From the IMG/VR virus record IMGVR_UViG_3300028549_000507, positions 1-64,000 of that record: 64,000 bases of DNA; one strand, 5' to 3'. The position numbers and the translations under genes were made by a program. The notes beneath the pieces are model-generated. The model had not been told where the DNA came from and ran no database searches. It was given only the letters and a program-made list of their open reading frames with translations. Shown one piece after another: positions 16,056 through 62,812 of this stretch. Position 1 is the first letter of the stretch, and the number at the start of each line of letters is the position of its first letter. The stretch comes from a virus. Taxonomy: Duplodnaviria; Caudoviricetes.

Positions 16056-16211
16056 CTATTTATATCGACAGTCCTCAACGATCTGATCGATCGATCGGGA
16101 ATTATGTTTGTCGATATACTCTTTACAGTATCCCATACATTCCCTATACGATAAAAGAACTCCTCCGAAAATCATGATAAATATAAACCATTTTTTAATA
16201 GAAGCTTTCAT
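16056..16211 (-). CDS. Unannotated 51-aa cassette ORF (MKASIKKWFIFIMIFGGVLLSYRECMGYCKEYIDKHNSRSIDQIVEDCRYK)
   Basis: SD AAGGA plus TTATT-ATG, its own promoter/leader, stop abutting a terminator, N-terminal hydrophobic segment. Confidence 0.75.
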   Translation of the reverse strand: MKASIKKWFIFIMIFGGVLLSYRECMGYCKEYIDKHNSRSIDQIVEDCRYK

Positions 16212-16326
16212 AATAAATCCTTTTCTTGGTACCATAGATAAATATAATTAATTAGAGTGTATGGTATAGTCTTTCTATCCATTCTCCACTATTAAATATA
16301 TACTTTATAATTAATTTAAAAAACTT
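16212..16326 (-). promoter_or_regulatory. Early promoter plus family-A hairpin leader plus CTATGGTAC box
   Basis: TATATTTAATAGT at 16288-16300; 48/49 nt identical to 62742-62790. Confidence 0.85.
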
Positions 16327-25847: not shown

Positions 25848-27071
25848 ATGATTATTGATTCTAATGATCTATCTTTTAAAGATATTGTTGAGATATTAAA
25901 CAAAGAGACTATTACAGCAGACGATTTTCTTACCTTCTGTAAAAATAAGTCTGTAGACGATCCTAAGGGCGGATTTAAAGTTATCAAATCCAAATGGCAT
26001 ATACATAGCGTTATTCCACTTATGCCTAAGGATGTTTCGAATCTTGATACACAAGTTGAGACTACTATAGGTAGAGCACTTGCTAATAGAGTATTAAAGA
26101 TTGATATATTTGGTGATAAGTTTCCATACCTAAATGCACCTTTGAATATCAATGAATTCATCGACGAAGTTACAAAAGAAGCACTGATTGGTACAGTTAC
26201 TACCGCTCAAGTTATTCAATTATTGAATTCTGCAATATGGTTGATGAGATTTTTGGATATGACTATTCCATCATTATCTAAAGTCGCACTACAGATGCCT
26301 GCTTCTGCTAGAAAGCTCAGAGACGACCTAACTGAGAAATATAAGGCTTACATTGAAACTGGCGATATTCGCTATGTAAAAGATGTAGAGGGTCCTGTAC
26401 TTCAAGAAGTTATAAATGTGCTTTCTAAAGATCCAAGTTGGATGTTATACCATGTAGGTAAACCAGACCAAGGAAACCATTTGAAACAGACTGTCGGCAC
26501 ATTCTCACCAATTTTCAATCCTGGAACTGGTAAGTATGATATTCCAAGTGGTAACCTTCAGAGCGGACATAATCCTAACCTATATGATGCCATGGCTAAT
26601 ATGAATATCGTTGGTTCATATAAGCGAGCGGTTCAGACTCAAGATGGTGGTACAATCGTTAAGAAATTGTATGGCTGTATGAATCCTATTAAAGCTGGAC
26701 CTGATGGTTCTGATTGTAAGACTACATTGTATAAAGATGTATTTCTTTCAAAGGATAACTTGAAGTATTATCTTTGGAATTATTTCATTGATAATGGTAA
26801 GATTATGCTTCTAACTCCTAAAATTGCTAAAGATTTTATGAATAGAAAAATGCAATTTAGGTCGGCATTGTATTGTAAATATCCTTCCCCATTTGAGATC
26901 TGTAACAAGTGTGCAGGAGAGATTCCTTATAAGACTAACCTTAGAAGTATTGGTAGTACGACTGCTCGTATTGGGTTTAACTTTGTACAATTGAGTATGA
27001 AGGCATTCCATAACTCGACAATCCAATTGACTGATACTGACCCGTTCAAGTATATGAAGTTGTCTAAATAA
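25848..27071 (+). CDS. rpoC: Multisubunit RNA polymerase beta-prime middle fragment (probably virion RNAP)
   Basis: Bridge helix AVQTQDGGTIVKKL (cf. TADSGYLTRRL), Zn site CK..FRSALYC..ICNKCAG, trigger loop VQLSMKAFH; ends just after the trigger loop. Confidence 0.85.
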   Translation: MIIDSNDLSFKDIVEILNKETITADDFLTFCKNKSVDDPKGGFKVIKSKWHIHSVIPLMPKDVSNLDTQVETTIGRALANRVLKIDIFGDKFPYLNAPLNINEFIDEVTKEALIGTVTTAQVIQLLNSAIWLMRFLDMTIPSLSKVALQMPASARKLRDDLTEKYKAYIETGDIRYVKDVEGPVLQEVINVLSKDPSWMLYHVGKPDQGNHLKQTVGTFSPIFNPGTGKYDIPSGNLQSGHNPNLYDAMANMNIVGSYKRAVQTQDGGTIVKKLYGCMNPIKAGPDGSDCKTTLYKDVFLSKDNLKYYLWNYFIDNGKIMLLTPKIAKDFMNRKMQFRSALYCKYPSPFEICNKCAGEIPYKTNLRSIGSTTARIGFNFVQLSMKAFHNSTIQLTDTDPFKYMKLSK

Positions 27072-27107
27072 AAAAAAAGAAGGAAGCGTAATGCTTCCTT
27101 CTTTTTT
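27070..27107. terminator. Bidirectional terminator, family T2
   Basis: A-tract-GAAGGAAGC-GTAAT-GCTTCCTTC-T-tract. Confidence 0.85.
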
Positions 27108-27108
27108 C

Positions 27109-27369
27109 CTAACATTCAATTCCGTACGTTAGGAAGTACTGCATTTCGTGAAAGCTTCTCATAGCTTTCACTACTGATGGAATAGTTGAGACATACGTTT
27201 CAACGATATCCCATGATCCTGTTACTGGGTCGTGAAACATATCGGCCAGGCAGATGATATCATCTGAATTCTGGGGGTAGTTCCCAGAATACATCGTGGT
27301 GTGATTTTCAGATGACGTGGCTGTAACGAAATTTGAAAAGTCAGAATTGGTTTCGATAGTTCTTTTCAT
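27109..27369 (-). CDS. 86-aa cassette ORF with hairpin-dense coding sequence
   Basis: GGATCTATT-ATG start, family-C leader, stop next to a terminator. Confidence 0.7.
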   Translation of the reverse strand: MKRTIETNSDFSNFVTATSSENHTTMYSGNYPQNSDDIICLADMFHDPVTGSWDIVETYVSTIPSVVKAMRSFHEMQYFLTYGIEC

Positions 27370-27488
27370 AATAGATCCAATCCGGGCGTATTGTTCGCCC
27401 TATAATATAATTAATAGAAGGTAAGTTAACACTCGTTACTTCCTTCTTTGTTCACTATTAAATATACACATCAATAATCGTTTATTAC
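27370..27488 (-). promoter_or_regulatory. Early promoter plus family-C two-hairpin leader
   Basis: TATATTTAATAGT at 27454-27466; 57/58 nt identical to 54150-54207. Confidence 0.85.
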
Positions 27489-27519
27489 AAAAAAAAAGAG
27501 GTGACTAATGTCACCTCCC
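27489..27519 (-). terminator. Intrinsic terminator
   Basis: GAGGTGAC-ATTA-GTCACCTC plus T-tract. Confidence 0.85.
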
Positions 27520-27523
27520 ATTT

Positions 27524-27931
27524 TTATCGTATAGCTTTAAGACACTCTTCAAACCGCCCAAATCGACGATAGCGATATTCGGTTTGTCTTGCGGTCATTT
27601 CTACAATATGACCATTGATATTAACTTCGATTGATTCGTCTTCTTTGAGATCTTCAATCAAACATAATGGTATACGATTAAGTGCCAACTCACTCTTTTC
27701 AGGATCGGCTCTAAGTCTTTTAGGGATACCATGATCTCCCCAGTTCTCACTGGTATCTCCTGAACCATCTTTACTGTTTGTTATCCAAATCTGGACAACC
27801 GTTTCATCGCCATAGATACCCAATTTTTCACCATTACTTCCATACCATTTTGGTAGAACTGCGAATGATGATGCCTTAGCTGCTTTGTTTGGGATGATAA
27901 AGAATTCTGCTTTTACGACTACTTTACTCAT
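27524..27931 (-). CDS. 135-aa cassette ORF, hypothetical
   Basis: Start moved to MSKVV (GGACTTATT-ATG); the track start falls inside the CTATGGTAC box. Confidence 0.7.
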   Translation of the reverse strand: MSKVVVKAEFFIIPNKAAKASSFAVLPKWYGSNGEKLGIYGDETVVQIWITNSKDGSGDTSENWGDHGIPKRLRADPEKSELALNRIPLCLIEDLKEDESIEVNINGHIVEMTARQTEYRYRRFGRFEECLKAIR

Positions 27932-28040
27932 AATAAGTCCGTTCCTAGTACTCTTGAGTACCATAGAAAAATGTTATAAGATATAGATCAGTCAATCTAT
28001 TCTAGTATTAAATATATAATCTATAATTCATTTAAAAAAT
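27932..28040 (-). promoter_or_regulatory. Early promoter plus family-B hairpin leader plus CTATGGTAC box
   Basis: TATATTTAATACT at 28004-28016; ATAGAT/ATCTAT stem; near-identical to 29331-29420 and 43213-43265. Confidence 0.85.
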
Positions 28041-43090: not shown

Positions 43091-43180
43091 TTACCACCAA
43101 TCTCTTCTAAAGAGTTTGTAAGTGATAAGTGATGCTACGCATGTAACCGCGATAATGATAAGTTTAGTTGCAACTTTCAT
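43091..43180 (-). CDS. Unannotated 29-aa membrane peptide (MKVATKLIIIAVTCVASLITYKLFRRDWW)
   Basis: AGGA..GGATTCATT-ATG, its own promoter, family-B leader and terminator; single TM helix. Confidence 0.75.
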   Translation of the reverse strand: MKVATKLIIIAVTCVASLITYKLFRRDWW

Positions 43181-43285
43181 AATGAATCCTATTCCTGGTA
43201 TTCGTACCATAGAAAAATTGTTATAGGATATAGATCAGTCAATCTATTCCACTATTAAATATATACTTTATAATTCATTTATTAC
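43181..43285 (-). promoter_or_regulatory. Early promoter plus family-B leader plus CTATGGTAC box
   Basis: TATATTTAATAGT at 43251-43263; box at 43204-43212. Confidence 0.85.
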
Positions 43286-51334: not shown

Positions 51335-53722
51335 TTACATTTCACCTTTTACGAGAAACATTTCTTTCTTAGCAGTGCTATTTGTGAAAAGGTTCTCAAT
51401 CCACGTATCAGTATAGAATTTATCAGTACTTTTCAATTGGATGATATAACGAGTTTTCGTATCCATAGACGTTACACGAAGTTCCTCTTCCGAGTTCGCT
51501 CCGAGACCTTTAGATCGCGTAACCTCCATACCAGAATTATTTCCAAATAGAGTATTATGAATAAGTTTACCTTGTTCATAATAGATACCACTATAGATAG
51601 TTCCAGTATTACGTCCTACCAATCGGATTCTACATAGTTGAATTTTATTTTTAATGAAATCTACAATAGGATCTATTATATTTTCTTTAAAAGTTCTATC
51701 AATCTGTATATAGAAGTGCTCATATTCCTTATCAATATTAAGCTTTCTAACTCCACCTTCTTCAATATCGAATTTGGTACAATCAAATCCATAAACTTTA
51801 AGTGATTTAGTATTACCTTTCATGATATTCTTGAAATCCATAGCAATTGCTTCCAATATGATAGGATTCAATGTTAATCTATGAGCAAACTCATCAAGCA
51901 ATTTAGAATAGTCTACAAGATTCTGAATGTAGTATTTAAATACATAATCCGGAATATCTGTATTCTCTGGGGTAATACCTTTGAATACTTTCATACACTT
52001 ATCATTTAGCAAACGATTCAGTTGATCATGATTATTGATATATATCGAATTACCTTTAGCATTCATAGTGTATAAAGGCGGTTTAGCAATGAATACATTT
52101 CCATTCTCAATCAGCTCTGGGTAATGTATATGAAAGAATGCTATAAGAAGTGAACTAATATGATACCCATCAACATCGGCGTCTGTAATGATAATGATAC
52201 GCTTATATCTCAATTTAGAGATATCTTTAGTATCATCTTTACCAATTCCGAGAATCTTGACAAGAGTCATAAGTTCCTCTGATAGATCAGATTTCTTTAC
52301 AACATTTTTCACTTTACCACGAAGAGCGAATACAGCTTGATAATCTCTATTACGACCATCTTTAACAGATGATGCAGCGGAATCTCCTTCACATAAGAAT
52401 ATCTCCGTACGCTCTGGATCATTCTTATTACAGTCGGAGAATTTCTTTACATCAATAGTCTTGAATAGATCAGTTTTACTTGATCCAGATTTGATGATCG
52501 CATCTTTAAGCTTACTTGTTTCATATCTCAATTTTGCAAGTTTAGCACAATGTTCACCGATCTTATCGATAGTTGTTGGATCAGAAGATATCCATTTACT
52601 AATCTCATTCTTAAGAACTGGTACAGTTGTAGGTCTATATTCTTTAGAGTTGAAATAACTCTTCTGCTGACCTGTATATTCCGCATGTTGTTGGTCTGCA
52701 ACAATGATCGCAAACATACTATCTGCAATCTCGGAACCACTAATCTTAATCTTATTTGCCATAGATTTAGGTATGTAATTACCTTTATTAAGATGAGCAG
52801 TCAATGTTCCGAGTGCTTCTGTTAACGATTTAACGTGTTCACCACCATCTTTAGTATAGATACCATTTACATATGAAATGCTACCCGCACCACGTCCGGT
52901 GAATCCTAGTACGATATTATAACCTACAGTATGTTTATCATTAAACCATTTGAAATGTACTGGTTTACCGATTGTCTTAATACTACGTTTACGACTTTCT
53001 TTTTCATAATAGTCTACAACGCCATTAGGATGATAATAGTGTTCAACACGACCATTATCCCATTTGAAGTTAATCTTTACACCGGGAGTTACCATAGATT
53101 GTACTTCTACAAAATTTCTATACTCAGATGCTCTAGATGTAATATCTACAAGACGCATAACCTCTACGTCAGGAGTCCATTCGATAATTGTACCGGTGAG
53201 TTTCTTGTCAACTTTAACAATTTCAACATCACCAATCTGCACACCCATATCGAATTTGACCTTATGAGATTCACCATCTCGTGTAGAAATTGCTACAAGA
53301 TCACGACTTACGGCAGTAACCATAGTGATACCAATCCCATTTACGCCGCCAGATACAGGATATCCAGACTTCTCTGCCCCAGCGATATCTCCCATTTTAC
53401 CGGAAGTATTCATCTTAGTGAGAATTCGTACAAGTTTACCTTGTGGGATACCTCGACCTCTATCTTCAATACGGAATCGGGGACCTCGACTATCGATAGT
53501 ATTATTGATATATACATCAATTTCATTACCGAAACCGGCTATAAATTCGTCAATTGAATTCGCAAATACTTCTTGAAGTAGGTGAAATACTCCATCCAAC
53601 TCAATTTTACCATTGAGCATAGGGCGTTTTCTCAATGCTTCAAGTTCCGTAAGTTCAACGATGTGGTCATCATTATAACCAGTAGACATAGTAGATCCTT
53701 CATGTTTATTATTAGACTTCAT
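51335..53722 (-). CDS. gyrB: Type IIA topoisomerase/gyrase subunit B
   Basis: GHKL motifs EVFANSIDE, EDRGRGIP and GGVNGIG; Toprim motifs CEGDSA, LRGK and TDADVDG. Confidence 0.95.
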   Translation of the reverse strand: MKSNNKHEGSTMSTGYNDDHIVELTELEALRKRPMLNGKIELDGVFHLLQEVFANSIDEFIAGFGNEIDVYINNTIDSRGPRFRIEDRGRGIPQGKLVRILTKMNTSGKMGDIAGAEKSGYPVSGGVNGIGITMVTAVSRDLVAISTRDGESHKVKFDMGVQIGDVEIVKVDKKLTGTIIEWTPDVEVMRLVDITSRASEYRNFVEVQSMVTPGVKINFKWDNGRVEHYYHPNGVVDYYEKESRKRSIKTIGKPVHFKWFNDKHTVGYNIVLGFTGRGAGSISYVNGIYTKDGGEHVKSLTEALGTLTAHLNKGNYIPKSMANKIKISGSEIADSMFAIIVADQQHAEYTGQQKSYFNSKEYRPTTVPVLKNEISKWISSDPTTIDKIGEHCAKLAKLRYETSKLKDAIIKSGSSKTDLFKTIDVKKFSDCNKNDPERTEIFLCEGDSAASSVKDGRNRDYQAVFALRGKVKNVVKKSDLSEELMTLVKILGIGKDDTKDISKLRYKRIIIITDADVDGYHISSLLIAFFHIHYPELIENGNVFIAKPPLYTMNAKGNSIYINNHDQLNRLLNDKCMKVFKGITPENTDIPDYVFKYYIQNLVDYSKLLDEFAHRLTLNPIILEAIAMDFKNIMKGNTKSLKVYGFDCTKFDIEEGGVRKLNIDKEYEHFYIQIDRTFKENIIDPIVDFIKNKIQLCRIRLVGRNTGTIYSGIYYEQGKLIHNTLFGNNSGMEVTRSKGLGANSEEELRVTSMDTKTRYIIQLKSTDKFYTDTWIENLFTNSTAKKEMFLVKGEM

Positions 53723-53813: not shown

Positions 53814-53847
53814 AAAAAAAAAAGAAAGGCTTGCACCCTTTCTTTTT
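53814..53847. terminator. Bidirectional terminator
   Basis: A-tract-GAAAGG-CTTGCAC-CCTTTC-T-tract. Confidence 0.8.
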
Positions 53848-54106
53848 AACTCATACTCGCCATTACGCCGAGTATTGTCCCTGCAAGCACAGTGCTCGCC
53901 AGAACCGTGTTGAGTACGATCTTTTGAACACCTTTGACTTCCGACAACCCGTCGGAAGTTGAGAGCATCATGAGCGGGATGCTCATGATCGCCAGTGCAA
54001 GCGCGATTCCTATGGCAATATATGCCATAGGTTTAATCATCATAATCACCGCAACCGTAACAACAGTAACGATAATTTGAAGTGCTTCTTTTGTAGAATC
54101 TTTCAT
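53846..54106 (-). CDS. 86-aa membrane cassette protein with hairpin-dense CDS
   Basis: Two to three hydrophobic stretches; GGATTTATT-ATG; family-C leader. Confidence 0.7.
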   Translation of the reverse strand: MKDSTKEALQIIVTVVTVAVIMMIKPMAYIAIGIALALAIMSIPLMMLSTSDGLSEVKGVQKIVLNTVLASTVLAGTILGVMASMS

Positions 54107-54213
54107 AATAAATCCAATCCGGGCATATATTGTTTTGCCCTATAATTAATTAATAGAAGGTAAGTTAACATTCGTTACTTCCTTCTTTGTTCACTATTAA
54201 ATATACATATTAC
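54107..54213 (-). promoter_or_regulatory. Early promoter plus family-C two-hairpin leader
   Basis: TATATTTAATAGT at 54193-54205. Confidence 0.85.
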
Positions 54214-54245
54214 AAAAAAAAAGAGAGAGGGATTACTCCCTCCCT
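54214..54245 (-). terminator. Terminator, family T1
   Basis: AGGGAGGGA-GTAA-TCCCTCTCT plus T-tract. Confidence 0.85.
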
Positions 54246-58363: not shown

Positions 58364-58900
58364 TCAATCTGAGGAAGTTGAGGTAATGGATATAGACTCA
58401 TTATCGATAGCCATTATGGTTAACGTTTCGCCAATAGAACCATTCCACATCTGACCACTGATAGTAACCTTGCCAACTTCACCAAAACACAACTTAGCAA
58501 TGTGCATGTCTGATACAAAGTGTCTTAACTCTAATTTTCTTCGCTCCTTACTAATGATCAACCCATCAGGTTCCTCACAGATAAGTCTTGCCCCATTTTC
58601 AAATCCAATGATCACAGCAAACCGAAAGAATCTAGTAGCATCTGAATTATGTTTGATGAGATCAGTCGTTCTGGCTCTTGTAGTTGGATCATATGCTATA
58701 TATACATTTCTTATAAATCCGGTATCTTGGATAAGTACATATGTATTATCCTCAAGGTGGTCGATAAATTCAATATTATCATCAGTTCCAGTGATGATAT
58801 GTCTTAGTATTTGTACAGATTTCAATCCTCGAAAATCCGTCTCATTAAAATTAACAAACCCAACATTAAGTTCTTCCGAACTACACTTCTGCATATCCAT
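58364..58900 (-). CDS. Cassette ORF, hypothetical
   Basis: Start moved to MDMQK (AGGAG-TTATT-ATG). Confidence 0.65.
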   Translation of the reverse strand: MDMQKCSSEELNVGFVNFNETDFRGLKSVQILRHIITGTDDNIEFIDHLEDNTYVLIQDTGFIRNVYIAYDPTTRARTTDLIKHNSDATRFFRFAVIIGFENGARLICEEPDGLIISKERRKLELRHFVSDMHIAKLCFGEVGKVTISGQMWNGSIGETLTIMAIDNESISITSTSSD

Positions 58901-58982
58901 AATAACTCCTCTTATAATATTATTACACATTTGACATTCGTCCTATGTGTTCACTATTAAATATATAATTTAATATGAATTT
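58901..58982 (-). promoter_or_regulatory. Early promoter plus hairpin leader
   Basis: TATATTTAATAGTGAACA at 58948-58965 (shared with family C), then ACACAT..GAC-GAAT-GTC..ATGTGT. Confidence 0.8.
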
Positions 58983-62460: not shown

Positions 62461-62692
62461 ATTCTGAAGCCTTTCTAAGGGCACGGCGAAGTGCCGCTCC
62501 CTTATACGCTACGGAGTCATAGATATTCACCCACACGTCGAAATCTCCTTCCGGATCAATAGCGTGTCCGAAGATCCACGCATCTCCATTCATAATGAAC
62601 GAAGTCTGAATAGCCTCAACCCCCTGCACAGATACTTCTGTGATAAGGGTTCTAATTTCTTTGTCGCCGCTGTTTGTTGTAACTTTAATCAT
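62459..62692 (-). CDS. 77-aa cassette ORF, hypothetical
   Basis: Start moved to MIKVTT (AAGAAAAGGATCTATT-ATG); about 46% GC by hand count. Confidence 0.7.
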   Translation of the reverse strand: MIKVTTNSGDKEIRTLITEVSVQGVEAIQTSFIMNGDAWIFGHAIDPEGDFDVWVNIYDSVAYKGAALRRALRKASE

Positions 62693-62812
62693 AATAGATC
62701 CTTTTCTTGGCACACCTGTACCATAGTAAAAATATAGTTTGTTAGAGTATATGGTATAGTCTTTCTATCCATTCTCCACTATTAAATATACACATCAATA
62801 ATCGTTTATTAC
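62693..62812 (-). promoter_or_regulatory. Early promoter plus family-A leader plus CTATGGTAC box
   Basis: TATATTTAATAGT at 62778-62790; box at 62718-62726. Confidence 0.85.

Follow-up and report, generated by a model that had tools for sequence, protein, structure and literature searches.

A strain-specific variant of a common two-hairpin leader in an AR9/phiKZ-type jumbo phage

Comparison with described leaders and early promoters

The closest described systems are the PeSL elements of T4-type phages (Arbiol et al. 2010, PMC2839356; Comeau et al. [quoted passage not shown] These properties recur at two sites in the first 64 kb of a 200,251-bp IMG/VR record that is estimated to be 72% complete; this 64,000-nucleotide stretch, the whole of the DNA presented here, is referred to as the window. 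A leader of about 90 bases, designated family C, occurs there twice on the minus strand (27367-27466 and 54104-54205), and terminator-like hairpins with T-runs appear directly upstream of both putative promoters. The PeSL promoter corresponds to the host sigma-70 consensus, whereas the motif found here resembles promoters of AR9-type virion polymerases. In addition, the PeSL stem-loop is a terminator located upstream of or within the promoter, whereas the elements described here also carry two hairpins that are predicted to be transcribed as part of the leader and that show covariation. Finally, the PeSL hosts are T4-type phages, whereas the phage studied here is not T4-like.

In the ompA 5' UTR of E. 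coli, a stem-loop near the 5' end is followed by a single-stranded AU-rich segment, a second stem-loop and the ribosome-binding site, and the parts of the family-C leader are arranged in a similar order. The two leaders have no sequence relationship, however, and the first hairpin of family C probably lies several bases away from the 5' end. A stabilising effect of 5'-terminal stem-loops on bacterial mRNAs has been described (Emory 1992, Bouvet and Belasco 1992, Arnold 1998, via PMC3997798), and a stem-loop close to the 5' end is what family C would share with the ompA leader (Emory 1992, Arnold 1998). In Bacillus, a stabilising effect is attributed to polypurine, SD-like 5' elements, as in the early RNA of phage SP82 and in ermC (Hue et al. 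1995, via PMC3997798). A purine-rich, SD-like run, AAAGAAGGAAG, is likewise found near the inferred 5' end of family C. The known mechanism of the Bacillus elements is 30S binding, whereas the run is base-paired in hairpin 1 here, so that 30S binding would need the stem to open.

In phage AR9, early promoters with the consensus AAATATATATTAT-N6-G+1 are read by the injected virion polymerase, and early transcription proceeds without new protein synthesis (Lavysh et al. 2017, PMC5312081). The AR9 element and the motif described here are both extended, highly conserved and AT-rich, with an inferred start approximately 6 nt downstream, and both precede (putative) early genes including a topoisomerase/gyrase B homologue; the two motifs differ in detail. 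For the 5' UTRs of AR9 early transcripts, a predicted motif has been mentioned for which no function is known (PMC5312081).

Layout, putative promoter and cargo of the family-C leader

Both family-C copies have a common layout in which the terminator of the upstream gene is followed by the motif TATATTTAATAGTGRA, hairpin 1, an AU linker, hairpin 2, a ribosome-binding site and an ATG (Table 1). ViennaRNA folds both copies into exactly these two hairpins, with -20.5 and -19.6 kcal/mol and z values of -3.2 and -4.0, and none of 200 shuffled sequences folded as well; minimum-energy and centroid structures concur. Both hairpins had been described in an earlier note on this DNA, and the element reads on the minus strand. 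The alignment of the copies bears out two further statements of that note, namely that hairpin 1 differs between 27.4 and 54.2 kb only in its loop (GAGT versus GAAT), and that hairpin 2 combines a compensatory exchange, from G-C in copy 1 to A-U in copy 2, with a change in loop length. The two bulged A residues on the 3' arm of hairpin 1 are the same in both copies, the exchange in hairpin 2 affects the loop-closing pair, and the loop of hairpin 2 also differs in sequence. RNAalifold assigns 18 pairs to the two copies, 17 of them unchanged and one altered on both sides. Hairpin 2 is followed in both copies by the block GGATTGGATYTATTATG, the end of which forms the start codon of an 86-aa ORF. 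An 11-mer of the copy 1 linker, TTAATTATATT, is also present in a family-B leader (see below) at 16.2 kb.

Table 1. Features of the two family-C cassettes and sites of the common start context
Feature	Position	Strand	Description	Basis
Copy 1, 5' border	27496..27519	-	intrinsic terminator of upstream gene, stem then T-run	terminator scan, sequence
Copy 1, early-promoter-like motif	27451..27466	-	16 nt, TATATTTAATAGTGAA	motif scan, AR9 consensus likeness
Copy 1, hairpin 1	27416..27447	-	13 bp, two bulged A, loop GAGT	ViennaRNA, RNAalifold
Copy 1, linker	27401..27415	-	AU-rich, single-stranded, 15 nt	fold, alignment
Copy 1, hairpin 2	27384..27400	-	GGGCG/CGCCC, 7-nt loop, abuts ribosome site on 5' side	ViennaRNA, RNAalifold
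Copy 1, translation initiation region	27367..27383	-	GGATTGGATCTATTATG	contains block GGATYTATTATG
Copy 1, cargo ORF	27109..27369	-	86 aa, soluble, ORFan	
Copy 1, closing terminator	27071..27101	-	joint with convergent plus-strand gene	repeat family D8, sequence
Copy 2, 5' border	54224..54245	-	terminator of upstream gene	terminator scan
Copy 2, early-promoter-like motif	54190..54205	-	16 nt, TATATTTAATAGTGAA	motif scan
Copy 2, hairpin 1	54155..54186	-	stems as in copy 1, loop GAAT	ViennaRNA, RNAalifold
Copy 2, hairpin 2	54121..54140	-	GGGCA/TGCCC, 10-nt loop	ViennaRNA, RNAalifold
Copy 2, translation initiation region	54104..54120	-		sequence
Copy 2, cargo ORF	53846..54106	-	86 aa, hydrophobic, membrane-like	
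Terminator downstream of copy 2 cargo	53819-53847			
Topoisomerase II large-subunit gene, following this terminator	51335-53722			
Start context GGAYYYATTATG, window	16209-16220, 27367-27378, 27929-27940, 43178-43189, 54104-54115, 58898-58909, 62690-62701			
Start context GGAYYYATTATG, elsewhere in 200-kb record	68768-68779			

The terminase and topoisomerase II of the record have their best matches in the Bacillus phages AR9, PBS1, BpSp and Goe21 and in Staphylococcus jumbo phages such as S6. Together with the RNA polymerase ORFs of the record (one beta'-like, two beta-like), these matches identify an AR9/phiKZ-type jumbo phage with its own polymerases. The promoter motif is enriched in the window (24 matches against 7.3 expected), and 15 of the 16 good sites in the 200-kb record are on the minus strand, mostly right after terminators and before genes. 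It precedes replication-type genes including those for topoisomerase II and ribonucleotide reductase, and in AR9 an early promoter is annotated for the homologue of the topoisomerase gene that follows copy 2. From this distribution, the genes served, the AR9 annotation and the likeness to the AR9 consensus, we infer that the motif is an early promoter and that the 5' UTR extends from approximately motif position 12-17 to the ATG; the transcribing enzyme would probably be the injected virion RNA polymerase. With this start, the distance from the 5' end to hairpin 1 would be about 4-9 nt in family C and 0-3 nt in families A and B. No conserved -35 element was found at the motif sites, where TTGTAA precedes the motif at a variable distance of 4 to 18 nt. 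Other promoters were also sought inside the leader: a sigma-70-like candidate (TTAACT-16-TATTAT) is present in copy 1 only and was rejected, and an AR9-type late promoter (AACA-N6-T[A/G]) is absent from both copies. A Logan contig of the same phage from an independent assembly (SRR21758068_15509, positions 1-20) breaks exactly inside the copy 2 motif, which would be expected if assemblers are misled by the repetition of promoter and leader.

The two cargo ORFs are unrelated to each other, although each is exactly 261 nt (86 codons) long. Neither protein has a Pfam or PHROG match or a homologue in an index of 5.8 billion proteins, and as ORFans they give no access to orthologous leaders. Both family-C cassettes are absent from a sister strain (JGI sample 3300000235) that is 90-94% identical. 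At the copy 2 site, this strain has an unrelated 96-aa ORF behind a family-B leader. At the copy 1 site (L129:5255-5352, minus; window approximately 27100-27470), it has the putative early promoter, about 110 nt without a comparable ORF, and the same terminator, and the BLAST alignment between the strains breaks at 27103, by the closing terminator of copy 1. The ORF-less unit of about 110 nt (fold z -1.4) may represent either a decayed cassette or a gene for a small RNA. The sister strain also lacks the 16-kb cassette altogether. The absence of the family-C cassettes from this strain indicates that they are young and mobile. Family C, present in two copies and specific to its strain, is one sequence variant of a two-hairpin leader that moves with a promoter-to-terminator cassette found at many early genes of the phage.

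Covariation within family C and across the leader families

Six substitutions separate the two family-C copies; five of them are located inside hairpins, and four of the six affect hairpin 2, in its loop and closing pair. When six substitutions were placed at random, at least one kept double change arose in 3% of the trials, and a kept double change with no broken pair in 0.6%. The pattern therefore exceeds usual chance, yet it is a single event between two paralogous copies, and since five of the six substitutions lie inside hairpins, a single complex mutational event could mimic compensation. A third copy was not found in IMG/VR, either with an exact and gapped hairpin-1 pattern or with a pattern combining the promoter and the ribosome-binding site. 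A hairpin-2 pattern with free loop gave three matches in JGI metagenome contigs, all in unrelated DNA of 50-67% GC and hence attributable to chance. The promoter motif by itself is too AT-rich for collection scans, in which it gave at least 115 single chance matches. Protein-anchored look-ups retrieved contigs from other samples that encode the same proteins, and their leaders are identical and thus add no information. A blastn search of the region against GenBank phages gave no match. With two copies only, the covariation of family C itself rests on a single pair.

The earlier note had suggested a covariance model as a check on its proposal of a selected RNA structure. Over the whole 200-kb record, such a model found only the two family-C copies. 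The model built from family C alone retrieves families A and B and a leader at 58.9 kb with E values of 6e-5 to 0.02. Families A (28.0, approximately 29.4 and 43.2 kb) and B (approximately 16.3 and 62.8 kb) resemble family C in the linker, the placement of hairpin 2 and the context of the start codon. Approximately 13 of 16 leaders combine the same promoter with differing hairpin sequences at the same position, and the first 55 nt after 16 promoter sites have a mean fold z of -2.1, with negative values in 13 of them. In contrast, in AR9 the 34 leaders that follow an early-promoter match (no more than one mismatch to the pattern; loci L139-L168) are short and without excess structure (mean z -0.2). 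These AR9 leaders mostly start with GAU or GAA, and two of them (L153 minus and L158) are strongly folded exceptions with z < -4.

In a structural alignment of ten leaders, 97.3% of the cells pair compared with 73.7% in shuffles and 31-56% after sliding the partners, and 15 of the 18 pairs are altered on both sides, values reached by none of 500 shuffles for either measure, although these scores are inflated because the alignment was fitted to the structure of the model and comprises only three to four independent lineages. With the sister strain included, the outer pair of hairpin 1 in family A occurs as AU (two), GC (two) and GU (one); this pair includes motif position 14, so that base 14 must be transcribed. 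In hairpin 1 of family B, the comparison with the sister strain shows a change from A-U to G-U. The leader at 54.6 kb differs from its sister-strain ortholog by four changes in 62 nt, two of them in a loop and the other two forming one swap from U-A to C-G. The 5' arm of hairpin 2 does not vary in families A and B; the loops and 3' arms do, with complementarity retained. Paired and unpaired positions did not differ significantly in variable columns across the four family alignments (Fisher P 0.28), which places the signal in how the pairs change and not in how often. In nine of ten leaders, the sense strand gives a more stable fold than the antisense strand, by 3.6 kcal/mol on average; this advantage is due to G-U pairs and argues for a structure of the RNA, not of the DNA, for the system as a whole. 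The leader system, and with it family C, is therefore likely to have a selected RNA structure, as claimed in the earlier note; the support comes from the sister leader families, and the one compensated pair of family C adds little to it.

Sequence outside the hairpins is also shared. The block GGATYTATTATG is common to at least eight early cassettes. The start context GGAYYYATTATG, with AAA or AGT frequently coming next, likewise occurs in at least eight early cassettes, the cargo genes of which are unrelated. An antisense partner for the common ribosome-site block was sought across the record and not found. The apex GAUUGACUGAU of hairpin 1 in family A (window 27985-28000 and 43232-43247) recurs in an otherwise different, longer hairpin behind the putative promoter at 186.3 kb (approximately 186280-186310 of the record), which hints at sequence-specific recognition of that loop.

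Proposed role and alternative explanations

We propose that the family-C element is a constitutive structured 5' leader serving mRNA stability and presentation of the ribosome-binding site, a reading that we consider about as likely to be correct as not. In this hypothetical scenario, (i) transcription would begin at the 3' end of the conserved AT-rich promoter; (ii) the RNA would fold co-transcriptionally into a 5'-proximal hairpin 1, an AU-rich linker and a short GC-rich hairpin 2 abutting the ribosome-binding site; (iii) hairpin 1 would impede decay that depends on the 5' end; and (iv) hairpin 2 would hold the ribosome site single-stranded and insulate it from whichever cargo is attached, and could in addition form another barrier against nucleases. 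Families A, B and C would be sequence variants of one leader that are moved by recombination together with their cassettes and can serve any cargo. Several observations run counter to this proposal. For a Bacillus RppH-type enzyme, two to three or more unpaired 5' nucleotides suffice (PMC3997798), and the predicted 5' tail of 4-9 nt in family C may be long enough for such enzymes, whereas families A and B are paired almost from the first base. Within family C, hairpin 1 shows no stem variation and hairpin 2 a single double change. Hairpin 2 is missing from the related leaders at approximately 16.2 kb and 29.3 kb and is therefore dispensable, and the early leaders of AR9 do not have such hairpins.

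If the structural reading is correct, the early genes of this lineage would be equipped with a portable unit of promoter, protective 5' hairpin, insulating hairpin and fixed start context, and a new gene could be expressed at once after recombination. The PeSL idea, so far tied to T4-type phages using the host polymerase, would then also apply to phages equipped with a polymerase of their own. The cassette would gain a component at the RNA level, and compact, context-independent expression parts would become available. The gain from family C alone, as a two-copy, strain-specific variant, is small. The earlier note had proposed a new cis-regulatory RNA motif, which overstates the case: family C is a variant of a common leader and is neither a new class of regulatory RNA nor a new kind of RNA switch. 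There were no signs of a ligand- or signal-dependent switch; neither an alternative fold nor a terminator-like tail was predicted in family C, and the Rfam 15 covariance models gave no family at gathering score anywhere in the window.

Alternatively, a factor of the phage or the host could recognise the hairpins, for example a repressor of translation, a nuclease, or a chaperone or export factor for RNA, with families A, B and C defining separate regulons. We regard this as possible but unlikely, and the same doubt applies to its consequence that family C would co-regulate its two cargo genes. The operator hairpin of the T4 gp43 type lies next to the ribosome-binding site, the position also taken by hairpin 2. 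Within families, stems and most loop bases are conserved although the cargo is unrelated, and the recurrence of the family-A apex in the hairpin at 186.3 kb would suit a factor that reads the loop. However, this conservation may reflect recent copying, and the loops of family C have changed (GAGU to GAAU in hairpin 1, length and sequence in hairpin 2), the opposite of what loop reading predicts. No candidate binding protein was identified.

Rather unlikely, in our view, is that the hairpins are DNA-level or neutral inverted repeats in recently duplicated cassettes, either recombination substrates or terminator relics, and that the apparent compensation arose in one templated or recombinational event within the hairpin and not through selection on the RNA. 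[quoted passage not shown] In families A and B, however, G-U pairs favour the sense RNA by 2-10 kcal/mol over the antisense, double changes occurred independently in three other leaders, and the position of the hairpins relative to the promoter and ribosome-binding site is fixed despite unrelated sequences.

A further reading, which we consider improbable, is that the two-hairpin leader serves as a dedicated tag of early transcripts made by the virion polymerase in a jumbo phage lineage of the nucleus-forming type. The tag would be read by a phage or host factor that routes, protects or preferentially translates the first messages after DNA injection. The three families would act as exchangeable versions of the address, each of which could be fused to any new cargo gene.

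It is very unlikely that hairpin 1 acts as a premature-termination or pausing element for the phage polymerase, yielding a short 5' RNA and a tuned read-through. The termination rules of phage polymerases are poorly known, and in the jumbo phage 201phi2-1 eight small RNAs originate from premature termination in 5' UTRs (PMC11512511); however, neither hairpin is followed by a U-tract or called terminator-like, while the real terminators of this phage have 8-10 T, and no alternative anti-terminator fold was predicted. Least credible, and almost certainly wrong, is a leader peptide whose translation would use a start codon in the loop of hairpin 1 and, in the 5' arm of this hairpin, the SD-like GAAGGAAG, with the upstream ORF controlling the main gene: the sole substitution in hairpin 1 does exchange two start codons, GUG and AUG (window 27401-27440 and 54104-54180, minus), and the 22-codon upstream ORF of copy 2 overlaps the main AUG with its terminal UGA, but a 1-nt indel in the linker of copy 1 ends the upstream ORF after 10 codons and in another frame relative to the main AUG, so that the two copies conserve neither peptide nor coupling; in addition, the SD-like element is sequestered by a stem of -11.6 kcal/mol, and families A and B have no such ORF.

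Beyond the sister strain, a 47-kb IMG/VR relative (G001) contains neither promoter nor leader, and its motif matches are terminators. The nearest distinct phage (L126), with a topoisomerase of 64% identity, lacks family-C sequence, and its topoisomerase gene is not preceded by a small ORF; the promoter core is kept, and 5' hairpins are found in two of three leaders. In the same phage, a gene-free stretch of 466 bp behind an early promoter (L126:5463-5928) starts with a 15-bp 5' hairpin (z -4.6) and may represent a long structured leader or a non-coding RNA.
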